A stretch of 56,564 nt of DNA, counting the filler, from Dugesia japonica (lineage: Eukaryota), in the NCBI GenBank assembly GCA_001938525.1. It is 5 parts of 5 records of this genome, joined end to end, with 100 filler letters (N's around TTAATTAATTAA, not from the genome) between each part and the next. Parts side by side here need not be neighbours in the genome. Positions count along the whole stretch, not along the records: positions 1 to 11,060 come from MQRL01547408.1; 4 more parts are not named here. The stretch is one strand, 5' to 3'. This document shows positions 4,750 to 53,270 of this stretch, one piece after another. Both the position numbers and the translations under genes were made by a program. How positions within the stretch are numbered: the first letter of the stretch is position 1; every line of letters starts with the position of its first letter. The notes beneath the pieces were generated by a model. That model did no database searches. It was not told where the DNA came from and was given only the letters and a program-made list of their open reading frames with translations.

Positions 4750-5415
4750 TTCCCAGATGATGAGCAGCTAGTACTGAGGGTTCAACTCGTACACGTCTAA
4801 CCATTAATCTTGCATCTAGTAATACATATTTAGGTTCATTGGCTGGAGATTTCAAACAAATCTTAGAAGATGATCGTTTCAATCGAATATGAACATTGAC
4901 TCAGGAATAAGGTATTTTGGTTGATTCATGAAATGGAATTGCAAAGAACCACAAAGAGATAATTGTTTTGATTTTGCAATAGACTTTTTTCTATCTGCTT
5001 CTGTTCCATATCCAATTGCTGCAAGACATTTATTCTTACTATCACCATTATAATTTATTACAGATTCAATAAATGGTTTGTGAATATAAGATCCATTTCC
5101 ACCTTCAATTTTTAAATTATTAAACGAAAGAGTTACATCCTTCAAAAGTGTATGCAGCATATAGTTACTAGCAGCTGAATCATTCTTATCAGTCAAATCT
5201 TTACCATCATTATCAACTACCTTCACTTTAATATACAATAAAGTATCATTCAAATCCAAATATTCTGTTTGAGATCCATTTATGAAAAACTCTACATGGC
5301 TTTGCAATTCGGAAATTGAATTCATAGGAAAGATATCTTCGAAAGTATCAATTTCAATTACAGGTTGTGGAGATGGTCGATCAAAAATATATAATTCGGT
5401 TTTATCGCAAATCAT
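4750..5415 (-). pseudogene. Polinton/adintovirus major capsid protein (double jelly-roll, hexon-like), N-terminal half
   Basis: ELYIFDRPSPQ...VEFFINGSQTEYLDLNDTLLYIKVKVV...NYMLHTLLKDVTLSFN. After a frameshift near 4900 it continues VNVHIRLKRSS...YVLLDARLMVRRVRVEPSVLAAHHLG, matching adintovirus MCP motifs. 3' truncated. Confidence 0.85.
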
Positions 5416-5812
5416 TTTTCAAATATTGTTCTTTGTCCTCTCATTCGTTTGTTTATATGCGATGAGTGTGATTTTTTGCGTTTTCTATGAGTTGGCTTAC
5501 TTTTTGGCTGATTTGATAGCATATTAGTTATTTCAAATGATATTTTACTTGTTATACTTTGCGGTAATATGTTTCCTACTTTTAGGATCATACTGGTAAC
5601 TCCACTAAGTAATGATGACACTAGATTTCCAAGTTTCGCTAATGCATTAGATTTTAATGTTGATAGTATTTTTCCATTATTAGGTAGTACATCTTGAGCT
5701 GTTTTCATACCAAATGAACCAATTAGTAGGCAAAGCAAATCTACCTATATTTTGTAGCCAACCAGATCTATACTGTTTTCCAAGAAAGTAAGGCAGTTCT
5801 CCGCCTGTCTGA
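5412..5812 (-). pseudogene. Polinton/adintovirus small basic core-like protein preceding the MCP
   Basis: QTGGELPYFLGKQYRSGWLQNIGRFALP, a frameshift, then LIGSFGMKTAQDVL and a basic tail RKRKKSHSSHINKRMRGQRTIF. Its stop overlaps the MCP ATG (ATGA, 5412-5415). Confidence 0.7.
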
Positions 5813-5815
5813 CTA

Positions 5816-7143
5816 GCTATAATGACTCCAAGACCAAAGGACAGAGAAATATGTTATAACGAACTAAAAATTTGGAATAAAAGTAGAACAAGATATGTAC
5901 AACCTGTCACAAGAATAATGTCACCGATTGACTATATTCCAAATCAAATAAACTGTTCTAATATTTTAGGACCAATGTAAATAATGCCAAATGGAAAATG
6001 GATCAGATTTCCCGAAAGATCCCATTGGGGTCCCAAACCTCAGAAGTTTTCTTTACTCAGATTAAACGGTGGAGAAAGATTTGAATCTCTAAACGTAGCA
6101 GAAAATGGAATTTACAGCTCAGACAATTTAGCTAGAGCCCATGAACATATGCTCTTCCCAGTAAAAATAAATCAAATATTATCAAACATAGTACAGATAG
6201 CTAGCGGAACGTTATCTAATGGAAGACCTAATTGCGCTCTATTATTATCACCAGATCACTTTCAACAAGCAACTCACAAGGTCATGAAAAAGATGTGGGG
6301 AAAATTCATCATATTTGACCAAGCAATGGCAGAATTATTAGGAATTATTTTAATTATATCCATCGTGAGTGTAGTTATCACTCAAATTTTCGCGATTTTT
6401 GATATATACCGAAGAGAAAAACGAATAAATTGGAAATTAATGACAGGAATATTTCCATTCTGGGGAAAGATGATTGTACTAAATAGCCACACAAAAGATA
6501 TCCATCAAAAAAAGAAATTCCTCAAGAAAATAAGCAAAATACACGGGTCAGATCAAGAAATTGGAGCACAAATCAGACAACTATGCATCGAAAGAGACTC
6601 TAGAGGACAAAATAAAAAGTCATACTTAAAAGCACTACAAGATCAGTTACAAAATAAATGGAACGACAGTGCCAGTAGTGATAGCAATGAATCAGTAGGA
6701 AACACCCAATCAACAAGTTATTACAGAGAAGAAGTTGTACAAAAAGACAGAAAACATGAGACAAAAGCCAAAAGGAAATCAAAAATTAGCAAAGTTAAAA
6801 AATCAATCAAAGATATGTATCAAAGAAATGCACAAACCTATAATCTAGGAAATCCACAAGTACTCAATACAGGGGTAATAGGTAATGACGGATGATATTA
6901 TCCAATGGAAGATCCAACACAATTAAGACGAGTACCTAGACCATACGATTTTTCAAATCCACCACCAAACCCAAGTTGAACTATGCCAATGAATGCAGTA
7001 TTACCAGATCAAATAATATGGCAACCAATTAATTCACCAATGCCACATCAAATGGAACCAATAGTGCAGCTAAACATTATGAGGTCAAGAAGCTCCATGA
7101 TATTACAAGACAATACGCAACCACCGGTACGAAACCGACAATC
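5816..7143 (+). pseudogene. env: Chuvirus/herpes gB-like (class III) envelope glycoprotein C-terminal part plus in-frame K/S- and P/Q-rich extension
   Basis: One frame: EICYNELKIW..YVQPVTRIM..INCSNILGPM*..KWIRF..ENGIYSSDNLARAHEHMLFPVKINQILSNIVQIASG..MWGKFIIF, then a TM helix (LLGIILIISIVSVVITQIFAIF). ORFs 5984 and 6983 are in the same frame, broken only by point stops. Confidence 0.72.
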
Positions 7144-7257
7144 NNNNNNNNNNNNNNNNNNNNNNNNNNNNNNNNNNNNNNNNNNNNNNNNNNNNNNNNN
7201 NNNNNNNNNNNNNNNNNNNNNNNNNNNNNNNNNNNNNNNNNNNNNNNNNNNNNNNNG

Positions 7258-7500
7258 ATCGACACAGGAGCAAGTATATCGATGATACATCCAGATGCAC
7301 TTCCACCACAAGCACACAGACCAATGAAAGCGACGAAATTAAGGGTTAATAGTCTGGAGGGACAAGTCATCTACCCGCTCGGACAGATAAACTGCTCAAT
7401 TCAACGAGAAAACGCACCAAAAATTCGACACAAATTAGCGGTAATGGATAAATTAGCTTACAGTTGTATATTGGGATTGGATTTACTGCCAAAATTCTAG
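7258..7500 (+). CDS. Retropepsin aspartic protease domain #1
   Basis: IDTGASISMI catalytic motif immediately after the N gap, and a terminal CILGLDLL motif. Confidence 0.85.
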   Translation: MDTGASISMIHPDALPPQAHRPMKATKLRVNSLEGQVIYPLGQINCSIQRENAPKIRHKLAVMDKLAYSCILGLDLLPKF

Positions 7501-7592
7501 ATAATGACATAATTAACTTAAATCAACTAGGAATATTCAAGGAATCGAACGAAAATAATAAATCCCCAAAAGTTACTCAATAAGTTACACTT

Positions 7593-7700
7593 TGTGCAAT
7601 ATGCGGAGAAAAAGGACATAAAGCCTCACAATGTAAATTATCAAAACCTAAATGCCATTACTGCGGAAAATTCGGTCACATAGAAAAATTTGCATAACAA
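7593..7700 (+). pseudogene. Two CCHC zinc knuckles (nucleocapsid)
   Basis: CAICGEKGHKASQC and CHYCGKFGHIEK-(frameshift)-C. Confidence 0.85.
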
Positions 7701-7902
7701 AATCATCACGACGTTACAAGTGTGAAATAAGGGGTCATAAGGAAAATGAATGTTTCAGAAATACAGTTCCAAGTCAACTTTAGCCGGGAGAACAGGCTAA
7801 TAGAGGTAATTTCAATAATAAACGAATCAACCGAAACCATAACAAAAGGATTCGAGGGAGAAAAACACCAACGGCGGTCAAAATCATGATGGCTTAAAAG
7901 AA

Positions 7903-10900
7903 ATGCCACCACCAATGTCAAATTTAGCCGGAAAAAGGAGAATTTCATACATCAACAGAATACACGGAGATCCATTGGATAATCACGAGGATATCTACCA
8001 AATTCATTTAGAAGAATACGAAAATTCAAACGAAATACAAGCAAGCAATGAGATCAAAGAGAAAGTTTGTTACGCACTTAGTCCAGGCCGACCACGATTC
8101 GGCATTGATATAAAATTGAATGGAGAAAAAGTTAACGCACTTCTAGATACAGGATCAACACTGTCCATAATAAATAATAGCAGCTTATCCAATGAACAGC
8201 GAAAAGGGATACTTATCAGGGATCAAACAACTAAAACAATAGATGAAGTATCAGTCTATTTAATCGGAAAATTACCCTGTGAAGTATCTTATAAAGGAAA
8301 AATAGTACTACACCATATGACAGTAATGGATATAACAGAACACATATACTACCTCAACTATTAACAAACGGAATAATCGATTTATCAACGTTACATGTCA
8401 AAGGTAAAAAGAGAGGCCGGTACTCAAAAAACTATGAGGCTAGTAACTCCGAAAAAATGATTATACCAAGAAAAAGTCAAGTGTGCTATCTCGCAGACAC
8501 AAAGATTTCAGAAAGAGGAACAATTTTATTTGAACCATATGATGGGTTCTCACAGAAATATAAATTACCAGCAGCAGGAGAACTCGTAACAGTAAATGAT
8601 GACTGGAAAGTGCCGGTCAATGTAGTAAATTTCTCAAATAAAGATATCATAATTCATCCAAATTCAAGATTAGGAACATTGACACCCGTATTAAATTTTG
8701 CCCATCAAGAAGAAGGAAAAACTACAGAAGACGACTCGGAATCAAAGGGCATGGTAGAATTCCCTCCCATGGAAGAGGATTGTAAAAGTTATGTACCAGA
8801 AAGTTAACCAACAGAGGTAGACAGATCATTCCAAGTCAATTCCGAAACCATATTAGCGGAACAAAAGAAACAGCTACTAAATCTCTTGGAAGAGTATAGA
8901 GATATATTTGCGTGGACGGACGATGAATTATTAGAATGTGGCGTCACAATGCATACGATTCCGTTAATCNNNNNNNNNNNNNNNNNNNNNNNNNNNNNNN
9001 NNNNNNNNNNNNNNNNNNNGACCCAGTAAAATTAAAACCATGCAGAATTGCACAATCTCAGAAAGAAATTTGTGATGCAGAAATTAAGAAAATATTAGAC
9101 GCAAAATTAATTGAACCTAGCTAATCACCTTGGCAATTTCCAGTAGTATTAGTTAAAAAGAAAGATGAGTCAACACGTTTCTGTATCGATTACAGACAAT
9201 TAAATGCCAAAACAAAAAAAGACACCTATCCTTTGCCGGAAATAAACGAATTATTACAGTTGTTGTACAGAGCGATATTATATTCAACACTTAATCTAAT
9301 AAGCGGATATTGGCAATTAAAAATCAAACCAGAAGATAAGGAAAAGACAGCATTTACAGCAGGACGCGATTTTTATCAATTTATTCGAATGCCATTTGGT
9401 CTAACTGACGCACCAGCATCATTTCAGAGATGCATGAATTTTGTCACACATGGCATAGCACATTGTATGATATATATAGACGATCTATTAATATTCTCAA
9501 CATCATTTGAAGAACACATAAAGGATCTTCGAACATTCTTCATTAGACTTCGACACTGAAATTTAAAAGTCAAACCTACTAACTGCGATTGGGCCAAGAA
9601 CAAAGTCACGTTCTCAGGACATCAAATATCAGAGAAGAGTAGAGAACCAGACCAGAGGAATACAGAAAAAATAAAAGAATTTCCAGTGCCTAAATGTGTC
9701 AAAGCAATACAAAAATTTCTTGGATTATGCTGATATTACAGGAAACTTATTAAAGGTTATGCAACGATTGCAAAATCCATGCAAAATCTTGTAAAGCAAG
9801 ATACAGCCCTTATATGGGCAGATGAACAACCAAATTCATTCGAATCTCTCAGACATAAAAAAAACCACCAATGTTAGCTCAACCAAATTTTGAAAAACCA
9901 TTCTTACTTGCAACTGATGCAAGCAAATACGCAGCAGGAGCTGTATTAGGCCAGTATGATGATCAAGGGCGAGAACACGTTATAGCGTATTTCAGCAAAA
10001 CATTCCAAGGAGCTGAAAAAATTTACAGTACAACAGAAGGAGAAAAAAAGCAATTAAACATTTTAGATATCTTCTTCTCGGGCATGAAGTCATTATATTC
10101 TCAGATCATCAACCACTAACTATGATTGGCTAGAAATCATTACGAACTCTCAGAATTGCAAAATGGCCAATAAGTTTACAAAAATACATGCCAAAAATAA
10201 AATTCAGGAGCGGCAAAGCAACTTCTAATGCAGATTGTTTATCACGAGCCATATTTCCAGAACTTGTAAACGAACAAACGGAAGCTATCTGTTTCTTATT
10301 ATCAGAAGACATAGATTTTAAACAATTCAAGGAGGATCAGAGGGAAGACTTAGAAGCAAAAATTATTCAGAAATATCTAATGGCAAAGCAAAACGATGCA
10401 CTAAACTACGACCCAGAAATGAGAGAACACTTACTGAAAAGTGGATGTCGTTATACAAAGAAAAAGGATAGTTAATGGCACAGAATGGAGATAAAAAGCA
10501 ATATTTGTACCAAAATCGCACAGAGAACGAATTCTATAGCAATACCACAATGGAGTCCTCGAAGTACATATATCAGCAAGAAAAACAGAAGCCAAATTAA
10601 GACACAAATACTATTGGCCAAGAATCGCTCAAGATGTAAAGGATTGGATAGCACATTGTCAGATATGCGCTTCCAGAAGAGGAACAGGAGGTTCAGAAAA
10701 GGCATCATTAAAACCAATGCCAATACCAACCAAACCAATGTTAGATCATGGCGATGGACGTAGTCGGACCATTACCCGAAACTGTAGATGGAAACTCATA
10801 CATTCTGGTATGTATGGATTATCTGTCTAAATATCCTGAAGCATTCCCGATGAAAAATCAAAACGACACAACGATAGAAGAACTATTTGTAAAGGAAATT

Positions 10901-11060
10901 TTCAGCAAATATGGTACACCAAAGAAAACCCTAACTGATCAAGGCAGAAATTTTATGAGTGACATTTTTACAGAAGTCACTAGATGCTTCTAAATATTGA
11001 AATTAAGAACATCACCGTACCATCCACAGACAGACGTGCTAGCAGAAAGGTTTAACAGAA
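7903..11060 (+). mobile_element. pol: Ty3/gypsy pol (decayed): protease #2, dUTPase-like segment, RT, RNase H, integrase
   Basis: LNGEKVNALLDTGST (~8116-8160); VPVNVVNFSNKDIIIHPNSRLG; SPWQFPVVLVKKKD..FCIDYRQLN; RMPFGL..YIDDLLI; LATDASKYAAGAVLGQ; NADCLSR; YYWP..CQIC; MDVVGPLP..TDQGRNF..SPYHPQTD..ERFNR. PR-RT-RH-IN order is gypsy. Truncated at the scaffold end. Confidence 0.93.
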
Positions 11061-11160
11061 NNNNNNNNNNNNNNNNNNNNNNNNNNNNNNNNNNNNNNNN
11101 NNNNTTAATTAATTAANNNNNNNNNNNNNNNNNNNNNNNNNNNNNNNNNNNNNNNNNNNN
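11061..11160. other. Artificial scaffold-joining spacer
   Basis: 44N + TTAATTAATTAA (stops in all six frames) + 44N = 100 bp. Confidence 0.95.
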
Positions 11161-11949: not shown

Positions 11950-13100
11950 TAATTCACCATTAAGAAACTTAGCANAAAACGGTCAATGGGGACCACGCAA
12001 CTCTTTAAACATATAGCCTATCGAATTTTATGCAGAAAAACCAGAAGAATTTGTTGAATATTTAATGCATGCATATTTGTGCTACAGCATGTGGAAGCGC
12101 AGAAGCAGATTTGATTAAACGATTACCCATTTATTTGAAAGAATACGTACTGAAGTGTTATAAAAATATGAACAATAAACCGAATAATTGAGAATATCTT
12201 AAAAAAAAGTTAAGAAAAAGGAAAATAGTTCCAAGGGAATTAGAAAGAACTTGCATACAAAAATTTAGAGATAAAACACAAGCATAAAAAAACTGTGGGG
12301 AATAATATATCCATGAATTGACCAATTTAGCAGATCAAGCTTTTGATAAAGGAGATAATATCGGTCACATAATATAATTTCAATTTTTAAACGGGACACA
12401 TAATTATATTCAAGAAGCATTAATAGCAGCAGAATATAAAAACTTAAAATAATTAACATCTAAAGCAAGAAGAATCGAGACAAATAATTTAGCATAATGA
12501 GAAAACTAGTTAAATATACACAATTGAAAAAAACATTGAAAAAACCTCGTCGAACGAAATGAGAAAATCATATCCAAATCCTCAAAATAGTAGAAAAGAT
12601 CAAGATCTAATATTTCCATCGGATTATTACTTACCGAATTAAAGTAGAAACGCGAGAAATTATAACAACTATAATAGGAATGCAATTCCAGAAAGAAATT
12701 ATAAAAGAAATCTAAGCCCTAGAAGAAATTTCAATAACTATAACAGAAATACAAGCCCAGAAAAGAATTTTAACTGAAATACCAGCACATCAAGGATATA
12801 TAATCGAGATGACAGAAATTTCATGATGATGATAATCATAAGAGTCCGAGCCCATATTTTTAAAGGGAAGAAAGAGACAAATTAAACTACAAAAGAAAAA
12901 TAAAAGGTTACAATTGTAATAAATTTGGACATATGGCAATGGTATGTAGAAAGAAGCCAAGTGACTGAAGTAATTTAAAAAAAAAAAGTTGTATCATTCA
13001 GTTCAAAAACAAGAGAAACTAATGCTATTGAAATAATAAGCAGTGAAGGTTATGAAAACATGATAATTGACCTAGAAGATATGAAAATATATTCGAATAC
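11950..13100 (+). pseudogene. gag: Decayed LTR-retrotransposon gag
   Basis: PIEFYAEKPEEFVEYL capsid-like start, RN(L/T)SP repeats near 12700, and knuckle (G)YNCNKFGHMAMVCRKK at ~12907-12960. Strong A-rich coding-strand skew. Confidence 0.6.
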
Positions 13101-21945: not shown

Positions 21946-23300
21946 GCATTTTACTACCTGGAGCACATTAATATTCTGCAGCTACTAGTAGATCCTTTAG
22001 ATAGTCATGGATTTCTTCAGAGATAACCATATCTACCTACATAGTGTACGATAACGCATCCAAATCCAACGTCTTAAATTCGTGTATTACTGATTCTAAA
22101 TTCAATGGCTCAAATATTTTGTGTGATATAGATTTCAATCTGAACTGCTGAAAGAAAGTTGCCAATAAATAAACATCCTATTTCAAATAACCAGACGGTT
22201 CTTACAATCAGTGATTATCCGAATTTCCATTGCCTTTTCATATTCTTTCTCTGTGATCTCATTCCATTTTGGTGGTATTTGTGCTGTTTCAACCAGAACT
22301 TGCAAACTAATTGCATAATTGTATGAAAATACCTCCTTTGACGTTGTAATTCTTCTATCTTTAAATTCATTTAACGCCAAAGATGTCTCTTTTAAGAACT
22401 TTACCCCTGAATCTATTGAAGAGTTTATAAACTAGTATGAATCTATAAACTTAATTACTGGTAATTTAGTTTCATGCACTATTAAGGATAGAAAATTTTC
22501 CGATGTTGTTGGAATGCAATTTAGGCTCCACTGCGGAAATGTATTTAATCCATATTTCATGATATGATGTAAATCATCCCTTTTAAATTGTGAAATACAA
22601 CAGGAAGTTGCATTTTCACACTTCTACTCAAGGTACATTTAGAACATGCTGCGCATAAATACTGAGCATTATAGTGATTGTGATCCTGAACTGGTCAGGC
22701 AATGTGTTCTTACACAAATAAAAATTTTTGGCGCAGCAAACGATATTTCTTCTTCTCTTGATATTACTATTGGCTTATTTTCATTCTGTTTGTAATATAA
22801 AGCCACCATAATTCTATTTATGTCTTGAATTTCCTTCAAGAAATTATATACATAGTTATCACCAATAAACTGTTTATATGTGGTTTTGTCAGTAAAACTA
22901 TTTACTAACAAATGTCCTGCTGAAACTGGCCTATTTCTTTGAAAATACACGTCATCTGATGGTAAAACTGATTCGAAATCAGCATATATGACAAATGGTG
23001 GTGTCATTGTATTTGAGAAATCTTTGAACTCTAAGTTTTTATCCGTTGTCACGATATATAATGTTGTTCCGGTTTGAATCTTCTCACAAATTACCTGATG
23101 CTTCTCAAAAGCTATTTCTTTTCTAAAACCGTTTAAACCATTTCAACACCATATTGATTGGATCCTTATACCATTGTTTTTATCATCAACAAAATAAATT
23201 TTCTCACCGTTAACCACAGTGAACCTATGGATGATATCTAAATAGGGATGTTTGAAAACATATTGATCATTATCTTTCACATCGTTTGAATTCCATGAAA
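21946..23300 (-). pseudogene. polB: Polinton pPolB, N-terminal and middle part (Zn finger, exonuclease, EndoVII-like insert, start of palm)
   Basis: PFVIYADFES (ExoI), DHNHY..LCAACSKC, CIPTTSENFLS..KFIDSY, KEVFSYNY, DVYLLATFFQQFR, VDMVISEEIHDYLKDL..APGSK. Confidence 0.88.
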
Positions 23301-29539: not shown

Positions 29540-30420
29540 ATAAATTACTTCTTTTGCATATTCTAAAATAGTAAAACTTATATATGGAAATATATTATAT
29601 TTTAATTTTGTTTGTCTTAAATGAATTGCTGCTGTTTGAGCTTATCCTGTTTCACTGCATGTAAATATTTTGCTAGATCTAAAGTTTATTTTAGAAGCAA
29701 ACTTTTGATAATCTTCGTCAGTTCCAACTATTTCTACTTTACATCTTTTTCTTATATCTTCTAATGTCTTTCCATAAAATGCATTGTTAAGTAATTTAAA
29801 GAAATAATCTCCAAAAACATCATTATTTCCTTTTGATATATTTCTTTGGTTAATATTAAATTCAATATAATCTTTAAACCAAGGTTTTGTTGGCATTTTA
29901 TATTTACTATGAATTATTTTTATTTTCATTCCTAAAGATAAATACAAATCTAAAGTACTTCCCAAAACAATATAATTTTGTTTATCAAATTGATTTAAAG
30001 TTAATTTAATATTTGTCTAATAATTCTCTGAAAAATAAATGATTATCATAATCTGTAGCATTATGAAAATAAAAAGGTATAAATAAATCTCTAATTGATT
30101 TATCTTCTAAATTACCAATTTTATGAGCATATCCTCTCAAATTTCCATTAAAATGATCATGATCAATAACTAGATTTTCAGTTATATCTTTATTACAATA
30201 TCTACATTTTTGATTTGTAAATTTAGGATGGTTTGTTCCTCTATAAAATTCAATTAATTTATTTACTTTTACATCAATTAATTTATTATTAATTTCTTCT
30301 AAAAATTCAAAGAATTGTTCATGAATGGTTTCTTCACAAAATACTTTATATTCATTTTGAGTTAAATGCTGATATTTACTTTTGATGTAAATTCCAAGAG
30401 ATAATGGTTTTTTTATTTAT
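29540..30420 (-). pseudogene. polB: Third pPolB fragment (divergent family), internally deleted
   Basis: CRYCNK..IDHDHFNGNLRGYAH, then LYLSLGMKIKIIH..PWFKDYIEFN..FFKLLNNAFYGKTLEDIRKR. Confidence 0.88.
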
Positions 30421-30789: not shown

Positions 30790-31560
30790 CTTTTGCAACT
30801 TTCCGATATGCCTTACACTTTCACATGCGTAGCATGTAGGAGGCTTTCTTTCTGGGCACTCCCGACTTATGTGTTCCAATTTTTGACAGTTCTAACATTC
30901 TACTTTCTCTTTTCTGGACTCTCTTCTGGTATTTGACCNTTTGTAGGTTGATTCCTGCATCCTTGGTACCGCTCTTTTTGGTTCCGTGTATAATGCCTCC
31001 TTGTAGCTACGCATCACGGTTATTTCTTTTGCCTTTTTGGCAATTCTTGAAACGTCTCTGATTATTTCTTTTATTTCTTCCGGTTCGGAAACTTTTTACA
31101 TCAGAATCTCTTTCTGTGTCGTTGCGCTTATCAGGAGTGCTGATATTAAAAACTCTTTTAACAGATTATGGCTAAGCAGTTTATCTGCCAGTTTTTCTAC
31201 ATTGTGGAAGAATAACTCTTTATCGGTATCACCCTGCCTGAAACGAATGAATTCTTCTAGGTCTTCAAAAACGTCTCTCAGTCTTTCCACCAGCAGTCGT
31301 AGCCTAGCTTCATACTTCTTTATTTTGTTCTCTGATGCTTCATATCTTTCTTCAAAATTCGGGTAAATCATCTTACCGATTATAATCTCTTTTAAATCTT
31401 TATAAATTTTGACTGCTTTGAAAAATCGACCAACCTCCCTCAAGAATCTGTCAAGATTGTCACCTAACCTGAAAGGTCTCGGGCGTAACAAATCTGTTAC
31501 TATGTTTGAGCTTGGCGTGGTCACCATATTAGCGAGAAAAACGTTATCCTCATCAAACAT
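30790..31560 (-). pseudogene. gag: Ty3/gypsy gag remnant with two CCHC knuckles
   Basis: RPRPFRLGDNLDRFL...FRQGD; EC*NCQKLEHISREC and TCYACESVRHI. Same family as 53271-54450. Confidence 0.8.
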
Positions 31561-41929: not shown

Positions 41930-43245
41930 TACTGGTTTTTTATTTTCCACTTTTGGGATCCTCGTGTGACATTAGACAGAGTGCACATGTATCGCATTTA
42001 CTCCTTGACAACATATCAGCATTTGTATGAAGCGATCCTTTTCTATATTCCAATTTTATATCTAAACTACTCAAATAATTAATCCAGGTTTGAAACTGTG
42101 ATGTNNNNNNNNNNNNNNNNNNNNNNNNNNNNNNNNNNNNNNNNNNNNNNNNNNNNNNNNNNNNNNNNNNNNNNNNNNNNNNNNNNNNNNNNNNNNNNNN
42201 NNNNNNNNNNNNNNNGAGAAATTCTTTCCGCGTAGTGCAATATCCTTTCTCATGACTCGTCTCTTCTTGGATCTTCATTTTCTATTATGCTCTCAGAAAA
42301 GATCTCTTCATTCTCATCATCATCCTCTTCTAGAATGGCATGTATTTATTTGGAGCAACTCTATACTTTTGTTTGTTTTCCACTTTTAAAAATATATCTT
42401 TTCTCTTTTAGTCTTCGTTTGTTATTGTTCGAATAACATTCTTCTGCTCTGTGATCTGGTTATTTACATCTACCGCATACAATTTTTGAGCATAATTTTC
42501 TGATGTGACCAATCTTACAACACCGAAAACATTTTAGAGGCTTCTTATCTGGACAATTTCTACGTAAATGTCTTTTCTTGTGGCAAGTCCAGCATTCCAC
42601 TTGTCAAGTTTTTGGACACTCTCTTTTTGTGTACCCATAACTATGGCATGTCCAACACTGTGCTTCTGTTCTTTTCGTAACTCCTCTCCACATGTTACTC
42701 CGCGTAAATCTTTACAACGTTAATAAGTTTTTTCTTTATATTTTTTCAACTAGTGATAGTGTTTCTTTTATATCTTCTACTTTCTCAAATTTCCGCACGA
42801 TTATCTCTTCTTCTGATTTTTACTGTTTGCACAAATTATTAGCATTTTTTTAACAAGAGACTTTCTTTTGTCAGCTCTCCATTTGCTAAACATTTATTGA
42901 CTAAATNCTCCACCTTTTTAAAAAAAAACACTTCAAGTTTTTCATCACCACGTCGATAGCTTACAAAGTTCTGCAAATATTTTTTTTAATCTCTTTTCTC
43001 TTGAAAGCTAATCGCAATCTTTCTTGATATCCATCCGCTTTCTTCAATGTTTTCACATATGCCTCTATTTATTTTTCATCACGCATTCATGTTATCAAGC
43101 GCCCCTTGTCTGTCTTAATAACGATGTTCTTCGCCTCGGTGTATATTTCACACAATTTAATAAACTTTTCTAGATCATCGCCTTTGCAAAATAACTTTGA
43201 CAACAATCTCTCTGTGATCGCATTGGTGTTTCCCGCTTCCACCAT
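41930..43245 (-). mobile_element. Gypsy deletion derivative: gag with four zinc knuckles joined to RNase H end
   Basis: MVEAGNTNAITERLLSKLFCKGDDLEKFI; knuckles CWTCHSYGY..EC, CWTCHKKRH..NC, CFRCCKIGH..LC and CGRCK*PDH..EC; then EKGYCTTRKEFL..WINYLSSLDIKLEYRKG..NADMLSR. Confidence 0.85.
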
Positions 43246-43559: not shown

Positions 43560-44760
43560 CATAAAATTTATTTTGTCTTTTTTAACGCCTTGTAAAGGTC
43601 AATGACTTTTTATTCGAAATGAAAAAAACTTCTTTGTTTCTTCAGATCTTTCTTCCCTACAATAATAACTATCTGACCATCATGTTGATTCACGCGTTGA
43701 CACTGTATTAGCTTTGGTTTTCTGACATAACAAATAACTCTTAATAACCTTTGTTCTCTCCACCAAGCCATTTCCCTTTTTAAATAATTCCAGGGTTTTT
43801 TTATTCCTGTGGAATATAACTGATAGTGCATTTCTCTGATCGTCTCCTTCCTCATCTCTTAAGAAATTTCATCTTTTACATACAATACTTCACTCTTTCT
43901 TATTAACAACTAATATCATCTTCTCTAATTCCATTCAGCTTCTTCGTCTTTAATTATGTTTTCTTTGCCTCTTCTTGAATCATTTAACATTGAATACACG
44001 ACTTTAATTTTAGCCTATTCAACAAATCAGCATTGATAAAGTAGACAACTTTACGATATTTCAAACTTATGTCTAAGCTACTTAAAAAGTTTATCCACGT
44101 TTGAAACTGTGCCGCCATCGGTATTTTTGTATTCAACATACATGTAATAGCATTATGATTTTTCCTTAAAACAAATATATTGTAATACAAGTAATGTTTA
44201 AAGTGTATTCTGAAATAATAGACCGCCAGCAATTCTTTCCTAATAGTATAATATACATTTTTGTCTTTAAACACAGAATGAAAATCATATGCAATCACTT
44301 TTCCCCCTTTTTATTTATATGTGACAACACCGCTCAAATTGGTTTAAACCTTGCGTCCGTATCCAGAATGAACGTTTTCTCCAAATCTGGAAAACCTAAA
44401 ATTGGGGTAGATGTTATAGCCATCTTTGATACTTTAAATATTTCTCTCAATTTTACTGACCATACTAATTTGGAGTTTCAGGGACCACTACAGAATTGCT
44501 CCAATTATTTGATCTTCTATGCTTATTCTTTGATAAACTTCCTGTAGTCGTTGCAAATGCCTAAAATACTACGAGGCCTCTTAACGTATTTAGGTTTTCC
44601 GTACAACTTAATCGTTTCTATCTTAGTTTATTTGTCTTTACAACTTTTCCTTTTGAAAAAAGGACGTTTTTCTGAATTAATTCGTAATCATGCTTGCAAA
44701 GTTTTTGTCAACATCTTCTCAATCACTTCATAGCGTTCATCTTTTCGAAAATTATAATTG
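43560..44760 (-). pseudogene. pol: Gypsy pol remnant (RT connection, RNase H, integrase start)
   Basis: LRSILGICNDYRKFIK, PILGFPDLEKTFILDTDA, TIRKELLAVYY..HFKHYL, WINFLSSLDI, NADLLNR. Confidence 0.85.
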
Positions 44761-51032: not shown

Positions 51033-52212
51033 AAAAAAATTCATTTTTTATGCGACTTAGAGATTCCAAACTAAATATTCGAATATATTCATGTTTTTAT
51101 TGATTATGCTGCATGGTTAATGTTTAATTCGATCAAATAGGTTAAAGATTTATGAAATAAATATCACAAAATATACAAGTTAATTATTTAAAATTTCATT
51201 TAAATAAGAAAAAGCTTCGATTAAAATAAAATTTATTTGTAAAAAGGTTCAAATTTTCGACAATAATCTTCTTCAGAAACATGTTGGCTTTTTGATATAT
51301 TCAATACAATAGATCTTTGTTACTCAACTCTTTAAATTTTATCGAAATTTTATCGGTTTAATTTTTTTTATTTTAATTAAGGATTTTAGTTTTTATTTTT
51401 AAATCAACTCAAAAAATTTCAAAAAAATTTTTTTATTAATACAGAAAAGTCTTTTAGATATTTTAGATATATTATACTTAGAATTTTTTAATTTAGAATT
51501 TTTTGAATTATTTTTTGAAAATTTTTTTAAATTTTATTTTGTTTTTTTATTAATAATTTATGTTATTTTAAATAAATTTTATTATTTTATAAATTTCTTT
51601 TTTGAAATTCATTCAAAAATGAACTAGTTTTACATAGAATTATAAAAGTAATTTTTTTTGAACCTGAAATTTTTAAGTTTCTTTCAAATCCATATTAGGA
51701 CAACTAATTAATATTATTTCGTTTTTTATATTTTTTATATATAAATATATTTATTTTAAACATATTATTTATAGATATTGATATAAACTTTTTTTTATTT
51801 TTTAATCATTAATTATTAATTAATTATTTTAACTTAAATACAATATTTTAGAGTATATCTTGATGAAAATTGCATTAGCATGTTAATCAATATTCGAATT
51901 TTATCTTTTAAAACTGGTAGTTGTTTTAATTGATACAGATTTGGCGCTAAATTTAACATATGATTTATATTAAACCAAAATTATTTCTATAAACTTTATT
52001 TTTAGAGATTTTAAATGTTAACAGTTACAAAGACAACTAAGAATAGGTTAATGCTTACAGATGGTGAGTTTGAATATTACTTGAACTCTAAAACGCCGAC
52101 TAGAATGTACTGGGTTTGCACGAAATAACTTTGTATTTATTGATGAATAAAAGTTAAATTCTTAATTGTTGTTCTTCTGACCTTTTATTTATTTGATCTA
52201 ATATATTATTAT

Positions 52213-53038
52213 AAGATTTTATGTGAAAAGTTTTTATGTGAAAATTTATTATGTGAAAAGTTTTTATGTAAAAAGATTTTATGTAAAAAGATTTTATGTG
52301 AAAAGATTTTATNNNNNNNNNNNNNNNNNNNNNNNNNNNNNNNNNNNNNNNNNNNNNNNNNNNNNNNNNNNNNNNNNNNNNNNNNNNNNNNNNNNNNNNN
52401 NNNNNNNNNNNTTTTATGTAAAAAGATTTTATGTAAAAAGATTTTATGTGAAAAGATTTTATGTGAAAAGTTATTATGTGAAAAGATTTTATGTGAAAAG
52501 TTATTATGTGAAAAGTTTTTATATGAAAAGTTTTTATGTGAAAAGTTATTATGTGAAAATTTATTATGTGAAAAGTTATTATGTGAAAAGTTATTATGTG
52601 AAAAGATTTTACGTGAAAAGTTATTATGTGAAAAGTTTTTATATGAAAAGTTTTTATGTGAAAAGATTTTATGTGAAAAGTTATTATGTGAAAAGATTTT
52701 ATGTGAAAAGATTTTATGTGAAAAGATTTTATGTGAAAAGATTTTATGTGAAAAGATTTTATGTGAAAAGTTATTATGTGAAAATTTATTATGTGAAAAG
52801 TTTTTATGTGAAAAGTTATTATGTGAAAAGATTTTATGTAAAAAGATTTTATGTGAAAAGATTTTATGTGAAAAGTTATTATGTGAAAAGATTTTATGTA
52901 AAAAGATTTTATGTAAAAAGATTTTATGTGAAAAGATTTTATGTGAAAAGTTATTATGTGAAAAGATTTTATGTGAAAAGTTATTATGTGAAAATTTATT
53001 ATGTGAAAAGTTATTAGGTGAAATGTCTGGGTACCATA
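52213..53038. repeat. 15-bp minisatellite (AAAAG(A/T)T(T/A)TTATGTG)n, probably internal to a non-autonomous DNA transposon
   Basis: About 47 visible units plus a gap. Terminates in GTGAAATGTCTGGGTACC. Confidence 0.93.
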
Positions 53039-53270
53039 TTTTTCATTAATTAAATTTATTTTTTAATAAATAACGTAAAATTTAGAAATACATTTCAAAA
53101 AATACATTTTTGAAGAAAATCAGAAACTTAATAATTTATACATTACAAAGTAAAATTATAAATTTATTATNNNNNNNNNNNNNNNNNNNNNNNNNNNNNN
53201 NNNNNNNNNNNNNNNNNNNNTTATAAATTTAAAAATCACGAATTTATGAACATTCATAAATTAATGAATA

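Follow-up and report, generated by a model that had tools for sequence, protein, structure and literature searches.

Two retropepsin domains around a zinc-knuckle pair in a probable Burro-like Ty3/gypsy element of Dugesia japonica

Organisation of the element copy

The stretch of Dugesia japonica DNA analysed here (the window: 56,564 nucleotides of assembly GCA_001938525.1, five parts of five records joined with filler) is AT-rich, with a G+C content of 17-42% per 1 kb, contains 29 runs of N and is crowded with decayed mobile elements. Among these is a + strand copy of a Ty3/gypsy-type retrotransposon, in which two retropepsin-like aspartic protease domains (PR1 and PR2) flank a pair of CCHC zinc knuckles downstream of an envelope glycoprotein (Env). 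The copy begins with the C-terminal third of a class III (chuvirus/gB-like) fusion glycoprotein, together with its anchor and cytoplasmic tail (5815..6895, +; Pfam PF24664, E 7.5e-19, profile positions 438-611 of 653); hydropathy places the membrane anchor at ~6329, and stops interrupt the piece at 5978 and 6893. A proline-rich linker with one stop follows in the translated frame of Env (6896..7143, +), where Pfam found no match; the related polyprotein P0153 appears by eye to be likewise proline-rich after its Env anchor. Beyond an assembly gap of 113 N that contains the start of PR1 (7144..7256) lie PR1 itself (7258..7497, +), the knuckle pair, which is nucleocapsid (NC)-like with a spacer of 6 residues (7593..7694, +), a linker with an internal frame change, in which translation, Pfam and hydropathy revealed no membrane segment and no known domain (7700..8103, +), and PR2 (8104..8400, +). 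The next domain (8415..8700, +), delimited by tblastn to relatives, had no match in Pfam and is called dUTPase-like by position only, as it occupies the place of such a domain in the available part of the Burro description (PMC6431247). Reverse transcriptase (RT) and RNase H (RH), with stops and frameshifts (9023..10250, +; Pfam RVT_1, E 1.7e-21), are followed by the zinc-binding and core domains of integrase (IN; 10498..11060, +; tblastn 45-57% to relatives), which the scaffold gap at 11061 ends. The gypsy-type RT in the order PR-RT-RH-IN is that of Ty3/gypsy elements, and a class III fusion glycoprotein (PF24664) lying 5' of PR and RT on the same strand is the Burro-like arrangement. No pair of long terminal repeats (LTRs) was found in the window or within the related contigs L001 and L002; the copy is truncated at ~5815 and runs into the gap at 11061. 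The 50-N gap before RT (8970-9019) is bridged by just a few letters in contigs of both public runs described below, and the N lengths of the assembly are therefore nominal.

Both retropepsin motifs, D[TS]G and Gly-x-Asp, are present in PR1, which shows IDTGAS at 7258 and closes with CILGLDLL before a stop at 7498-7500, its tail running on in another frame. The first knuckle starts at 7593, 96 bp past PR1 (Pfam zf-CCHC, E 2e-6), and the second, at 7653, lacks its final Cys in frame; the best match of the pair among the proteins compared was the Gag NC of the relative P0010 (20 bits). PR2 contains ALLDTGST at 8137, with DTG near 8146, and matches the protease profile of the lineage over positions 1-76 only: of the two motifs this copy of PR2 keeps DTG alone, Gly-x-Asp being absent in all three frames, with its loss sited near 8343-8361 and a tail in frame +3 resembling that of P0153. 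PR1 and PR2 lie in frame +1 and the knuckles in frame +3, with stops between them, so that the three do not form one reading frame. The order of protease, knuckles and protease given in a preliminary description of the window is thus right as to positions, but its parts lie in different frames and both the second knuckle and PR2 are damaged. The contiguity claimed for this stretch is borne out, with zero N in 7257-8969; PR1 abuts the 113-N gap, and the assembled sequence lacks its initial ~12 residues as well as its connection with the glycoprotein.

Support for the retropepsin assignment came from weak Pfam matches for both domains and an Atlas RVP score of 0.95 for PR1, while a PDB sequence search with PR1 gave no match. 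When the lineage protease profile was run over the six frames of the window, as the preliminary description had proposed, exactly two matches were returned, PR1 and PR2 (47 and 45 bits). The two are as divergent as was first thought: 14 of 73 aligned residues are identical and BLASTP gives no alignment, on which grounds a recent tandem duplication was rejected. Among relatives, the proteases adjacent to RT (canonical) end in a beta tail and accessory ones mostly in a helix and Trp, and profiles of the two classes assigned 25 of 27 domains correctly in a leave-one-out test. PR1 is canonical, scoring 60.6 bits against 48.5 for the accessory profile; it is thereby placed outside the accessory ("W-tail") class, marked by a helical tail ending in Trp, and its closest match is the single protease of P0008 (37%). 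The core of PR2 is undecided between the classes (52.8 vs 52.4 bits) and is canonical by position and tail. Being collinear with the PR-DUT-RT segment of P0153, PR2 is recognisable by sequence as the orthologue of the RT-adjacent protease, the ancestral one.

The 5' end at ~5815 is a breakpoint at which 37 and 12 contigs of the two public runs diverge from the window; the contig letters beyond it read, by eye, like the upstream Env of P0153, and the window upstream of it carries an unrelated minus-strand open reading frame (ORF). In agreement with the preliminary description, which saw no capsid (CA) domain, a capsid profile built from three relatives had no match in 5815-11060; its one match, at 11994-12539, lies beyond the scaffold join. 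This match belongs to a decayed Gag (11994-12950, +; capsid profile iE 1.8e-14) with one knuckle remnant that resembles the Gag of P0013, and it was set aside as the missing CA, being downstream, past the join and lower in G+C (28%). In relatives capsid sits 5' of Env: an N-terminal CA with CCHC knuckles upstream of Env was found in L002, P0010, P0013 and P0016, a region missing in the window copy. Neither CA nor CCHC was detected in the P0153 ORF, and the ORFs of several other relatives also begin downstream of Gag. The lack of CA is an ordinary 5' truncation, since the copy is broken inside Env and Gag was lost with the upstream part. The capsid, supposed to be either relocated or deleted, is in fact both, whereas the supposition of an N-terminal glycoprotein fails, Env being internal in intact relatives. 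The window copy carries stops, frameshifts and gaps, and a continuous polyprotein ORF is found in the relatives P0153, P0157 and L002. The copy is in all probability a dead, 5'-truncated member of a multi-copy Burro-like Ty3/gypsy family of Metaviridae type, with Gag, Env and Pol in a single polyprotein.

Relatives and their protease arrays

A phmmer search with the Env piece against 1.84 billion representatives returned 180 matches; among the best 150, nine exceeded 900 aa, 14 carried a protease domain and the best were long polyproteins, with cluster mates of 3,003, 4,099 (P0153) and 4,844 aa (P0157). A metagenome scan added two contigs with relatives, L001 and L002, and no matches came from phage and IMG/VR collections or prokaryote genomes. 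L002 encodes a single 3,703-aa ORF with CA, two CCHC knuckles, a ubiquitin-like domain, Env, two proteases, RT, RH, IN and a membrane protein, its capsid being indicated by Atlas Retrotrans_gag (0.94) and a weak Pfam match to Ty3_capsid. Further weak Pfam matches, to Bcl-2 in P0009 and to ubiquitin in L002, occur in relatives only, the corresponding region being missing in the window. P0008, an Env-PR-RT-IN polyprotein of the same lineage, is filed at NCBI as a protein of a Flavobacteriaceae metagenome-assembled genome, an entry that probably represents animal DNA in a bin. A search with the P0153 RT among proteins of 2,254-7,174 aa was dominated by joined gene models, without PF24664 in the best 120 of 495 matches, which were used only as tree outgroups.

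P0153 was the best or near-best match of Env (49%), RT (55%) and the flanking domains in the window. The RT tree has 48 rows, taken from 124 sequences whose RT match was of sufficient length, with outgroups reduced at 75% identity. It pairs the window with P0153 as sisters (support 100/99), and a 99/98 branch parts eight Env-bearing rows, the window included, from 40 other gypsy RTs. The Env tree (36 rows) recovers the same pair (100) and separates 16 polyprotein rows from 20 stand-alone glycoproteins (99). From this congruence Env and Pol come from one lineage, in which the phylogenies place both the Env and the RT of the window element. The element accordingly belongs with Burro-like Gag-Env-Pol elements, and the ordinary CA-NC-PR gypsy against which it had been measured is not the fitting yardstick. 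The domains of the intact relatives follow the order CA-NC-(Ubi, Bcl-2)-Env-PR x(1-5)-DUT-like-RT-RH-IN-(PR)-membrane protein. Downstream of it, an ORF for an RNase T (DEDD exonuclease) was also seen in L001 (L001:10617-12107; Pfam E 1.4e-5) and L002 (L002:12085-13473; 0.0011).

Multiple proteases are a trait of this lineage, as read from the predicted proteins. Eight relatives extend as far as RT; upstream of it, five of them carry two to five proteases (P0155, L002 and P0006 two each, L001 three, P0157 five) and three carry one (P0153, P0008, P0012); P0006 has one more, and P0157 two more, after integrase. Relatives that end before or at RT have four (P0010), three (P0004) and two (P0016). 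In its single ORF of 4,844 aa, P0157 combines ankyrin repeats and C2H2 fingers with seven DTG proteases. Protease pairs within an element are 14-48% identical. DTG, whose conservation the preliminary description wished to see checked, is kept in 33 of 33 protease domains found in 14 proteins, a count that is partly circular, the profile having been seeded with DTG-bearing domains. A comparison of L002 with P0155 gives identities of 53% for the extra protease and 64% for the canonical one, against 40% and 16% for the linkers, and the difference between extra protease and linkers points to constraint. C2H2 fingers lie between proteases in two relatives, P0006 and P0157. Given that PR1 is of the canonical class and that no CCHC knuckles lie between the proteases of relatives, the window family reached two proteases separately; it likely gained PR1 and the NC-like knuckle pair as a cassette between the Env tail and PR2.

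Origin of the protease-knuckle cassette

Whether the cassette belongs to a family or to one copy was addressed with contigs of two public runs, X1 and X3, of which 15,654 and 6,793 aligned to the window at 80% likeness; the kind of these runs is guessed or unrecorded, and one of them may be the window's own source. They cover 30 of 30 bins and are mostly 90-99% alike. Their summed depth, which is no copy number, is similar in magnitude across Env, PR1, knuckles, PR2 and RT, and such evenness in two runs speaks for a trait of the family rather than a single nesting event. The interval 7497-7779 is covered by a 651-nt contig and 7954-8198 by another piece, and the joint 7779-7970 occurs in both runs, with a short side of 57 letters. 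Among the 18 of 878 loose-end rows listed, none at the borders of PR1 or the knuckles is comparable to that at 5815. RNA runs gave 5 and 341 reads matching the window, nearly all <95% alike and on both strands. We consider it quite probable that the PR1-knuckles-PR2 layout is real at the level of the family, and private nesting and misassembly are both less likely than a multi-copy family so arranged. The scenario that would have undone the preliminary description, with CA and one protease in other copies and PR1 a private nested fragment, was not seen.

That PR1 and the knuckles are a functionless fragment of another gypsy element, nested or recombined into one or few copies, is suggested by the canonical class and raised G+C of PR1, by a layout found in none of the relatives examined, and by a window crowded with pieces of decayed elements in which a gap adjoins PR1. 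Such a fragment is nevertheless improbable: the order of protease then NC is the opposite of that in an ordinary gag-pol fragment, contig cover and depth are undiminished over the cassette with no listed breakpoint signal like that at 5815, and in both runs collinear, much-differing contigs extend from the knuckles into the PR2 linker. A chimera, assembled from repeat copies that belong to different families, is more improbable by far, even in so fragmented an assembly, with its 29 N runs, in which short reads collapse repeats and of which the best run contains just a quarter of the window's words; 7257-8969 is gapless, the Env and RT on either side share P0153 as closest relative, and contigs of two runs are collinear over the inner borders.

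Several observations count against a family-wide cassette and the roles considered for it below. At the PR1 side, the joints 7140-7257, 7432-7498 and 7315-7910 have short sides of only 25-29 letters, the one contig that joins 7140 to 7257 doing so with 29 letters, below the 31-letter mark, and among the 16 of 22,535 aligned pieces listed none runs from PR1 to PR2. PR1 has a G+C of 41% vs 32-39% in other segments, which would fit a foreign origin, though the segment is short and the signal weak. CCHC knuckles between proteases occur in 0 of 20 relatives scanned (18 proteins and two ORFs), and the closest relative, P0153, lacks CCHC and carries one protease only. No intact member of the family was recovered: longer proteins were sought with PR1 and Env in word-based searches that returned none, which is weak evidence. 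To these are added the circularity of the DTG count and the fact that all statements on cleavage and packaging are inferred.

If the cassette is nevertheless a family trait, its gain would probably have involved a second gypsy RNA, through template switching or recombination, followed by spread in the family. It is reasonably likely that PR1 was formerly active there.

Polyprotein processing and known systems

Retroviruses and LTR elements are generally described as having one homodimeric protease, the activation of which depends on particle assembly, and within-chain pairing of tandem protease domains is thought to have given rise to the pepsins. In the relatives of the window element, hydropathy detects a hydrophobic segment on the N-terminal side of Env, an anchor on its C-terminal side, and more signal/anchor pairs after integrase, with a second membrane protein in that position in all full-length relatives; signal/anchor modules also lie between proteases in L001 (L001:2-10282, residues ~1585-1770) and P0157 (~2095). 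The polyprotein of the relatives therefore seems to cross the membrane several times. It may thread through the membrane of the endoplasmic reticulum, where an internal signal peptide, cut by host signal peptidase before Env, would part Gag from Env. Pol, no longer joined to Gag and still containing many junctions that need cleavage, would then stay attached to the cytoplasmic tail of Env until proteases of the element free it. Extra active proteases may have been retained by sharing this cleavage load, either as homodimers of their own with different sites or as a tethered pair, and zinc fingers between proteases (CCHC in the window, C2H2 in P0006 and P0157) might bind genomic RNA and so have the Env-Pol chain packaged with it, an RNA tether that we regard as doubtful for the knuckles. 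The protease evidence for this mechanism comes from relatives, and the window's own PR1 and PR2 are broken.

A division of labour, in which PR1 is dedicated to freeing the glycoprotein tail and PR2 matures Pol, was the role originally suggested. PR1 is the first protease past the Env anchor, the extra proteases of relatives retain DTG and are better conserved than the linkers beside them, and an accessory protease yields a homodimer model: that of L002 scored 0.37 against 0.01 for the best control, with 93% contact agreement and a pLDDT of 81. The model narrowly passes the mark of the complex test, which 21 of 30 solved pairs attained and none of 23 single chains did, and its score may reflect likeness to solved retropepsin dimers. 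A dedicated protease is not required, however, as P0153, P0008 and P0012 have Env and a single protease; PR1 is canonical rather than accessory, and protease counts vary from 1 to 7 independently of Env, which leaves this division rather unlikely. We give a little less weight still to the possibility that two proteases of one chain share one active site, as in pepsin, allowing activation without two polyproteins meeting. An AlphaFold2 model of the accessory and canonical domains of L002 (pLDDT 66, pTM 0.63; one model) superposes on the covalent-dimer HIV-1 protease, its best structural match (PDB 3ka2; Z 16.2, rmsd 2.8, 185 aligned), and two accessory domains of L001 came out unpaired (pTM 0.42; rmsd 14; one model), so that pairing is not automatic. 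Each of these is one model from a 6-sequence alignment, made from relatives only, of a kind that solved retropepsin dimers invite. Odd counts (3, 5, 7) and the membrane module between proteases in L001 and P0157 fit strict pairs badly, and PR1 and PR2 lie ~280 codons apart. HIV-1 covalent dimers and the bilobed proteases of the pepsin family are engineered or ancient fusions, whereas the L002 pair is natural, with non-identical domains and a pairing that is modelled only. Somewhat more credible than either role, and still tentative, is the broader proposal that Burro-like elements repeatedly expanded their protease into two to seven active, diverged domains within a polyprotein that threads the membrane, through the accessory class and through separate gains of which PR1 would be one. 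Some of these domains would form single-chain pairs, and zinc fingers between them would tether RNA, a way of processing polyproteins that would be new among reverse-transcribing elements.

The accessible part of the account of Burro/GYPSM1, giant gypsy elements of dugesiid planarians, describes a single polyprotein with an N-terminal Gag bearing two to three CCHC knuckles, Ubi and Bcl-2 motifs, an in-frame Env with matches to mononegavirus fusion proteins between gag and pol, and a dUTPase-like domain between PR and RT (PMC6431247). The intact relatives have the same order; that text, as far as available, has one protease and knuckles only in the N-terminal Gag, whereas in the window two proteases flank a knuckle pair past Env and relatives have up to seven proteases, Burro1-4 being compared by description only (PMC6431247). 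Errantiviruses of GAG-ENV-POL type with an HSV/gB-type Env are reported from Platyhelminthes, Nematoda and Bryozoa (PMC13524379); they share gene order and Env class with the present elements, the Env of Smed_errantivirus_1 and 2 resembling the ectodomains of the relatives by eye, and the main text of that description has the word protease once, polyprotein and zinc never, and gives no protease count (PMC13524379); the Burro text mentions protease twice. The Gag-Env-Pol order and the upstream capsid are thus already published. Glycoproteins of this type also occur outside gypsy, in the mosquito BEL/Pao elements called Anakin. These carry a chuvirus glycoprotein (PMC7642597) and share the Env family PF24664, but their RT is BEL/Pao rather than gypsy and their gene order differs. 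A literature search on multiple, duplicated or tandem retrotransposon proteases found no account, and Repbase, Grohme 2018, Sacco 2022 or figures may show one; there is an appreciable chance, well short of even, that prior notice exists somewhere.

The interest lies in the protease arrays of the lineage more than in the dead copy of the window. With up to seven diverged, motif-intact proteases per chain, they form a natural series on the splitting of retropepsin specificity after duplication, and they let one ask whether tandem proteases pair within one chain. They also bear on how Pol reaches the particles of an element whose polyprotein carries Env at its centre.

Elsewhere in the window, Polinton-like pieces lie on the minus strand at 4879-5800, 22669-23142 and 29642-30416, with PolB (Pfam DNA_pol_B_2, E 9e-6) and endonuclease VII; the ORF 4879-5418, without a Pfam or PHROG match, is presumably akin to a Polinton capsid. 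Further decayed fragments of gypsy RT/RNase H and of multi-knuckle Gag were noted at 30820-30930, 42380-42710 and 44000-44750, all on the minus strand, and a tandem array with a 15-bp unit, open in four frames, occupies 52144-53060.

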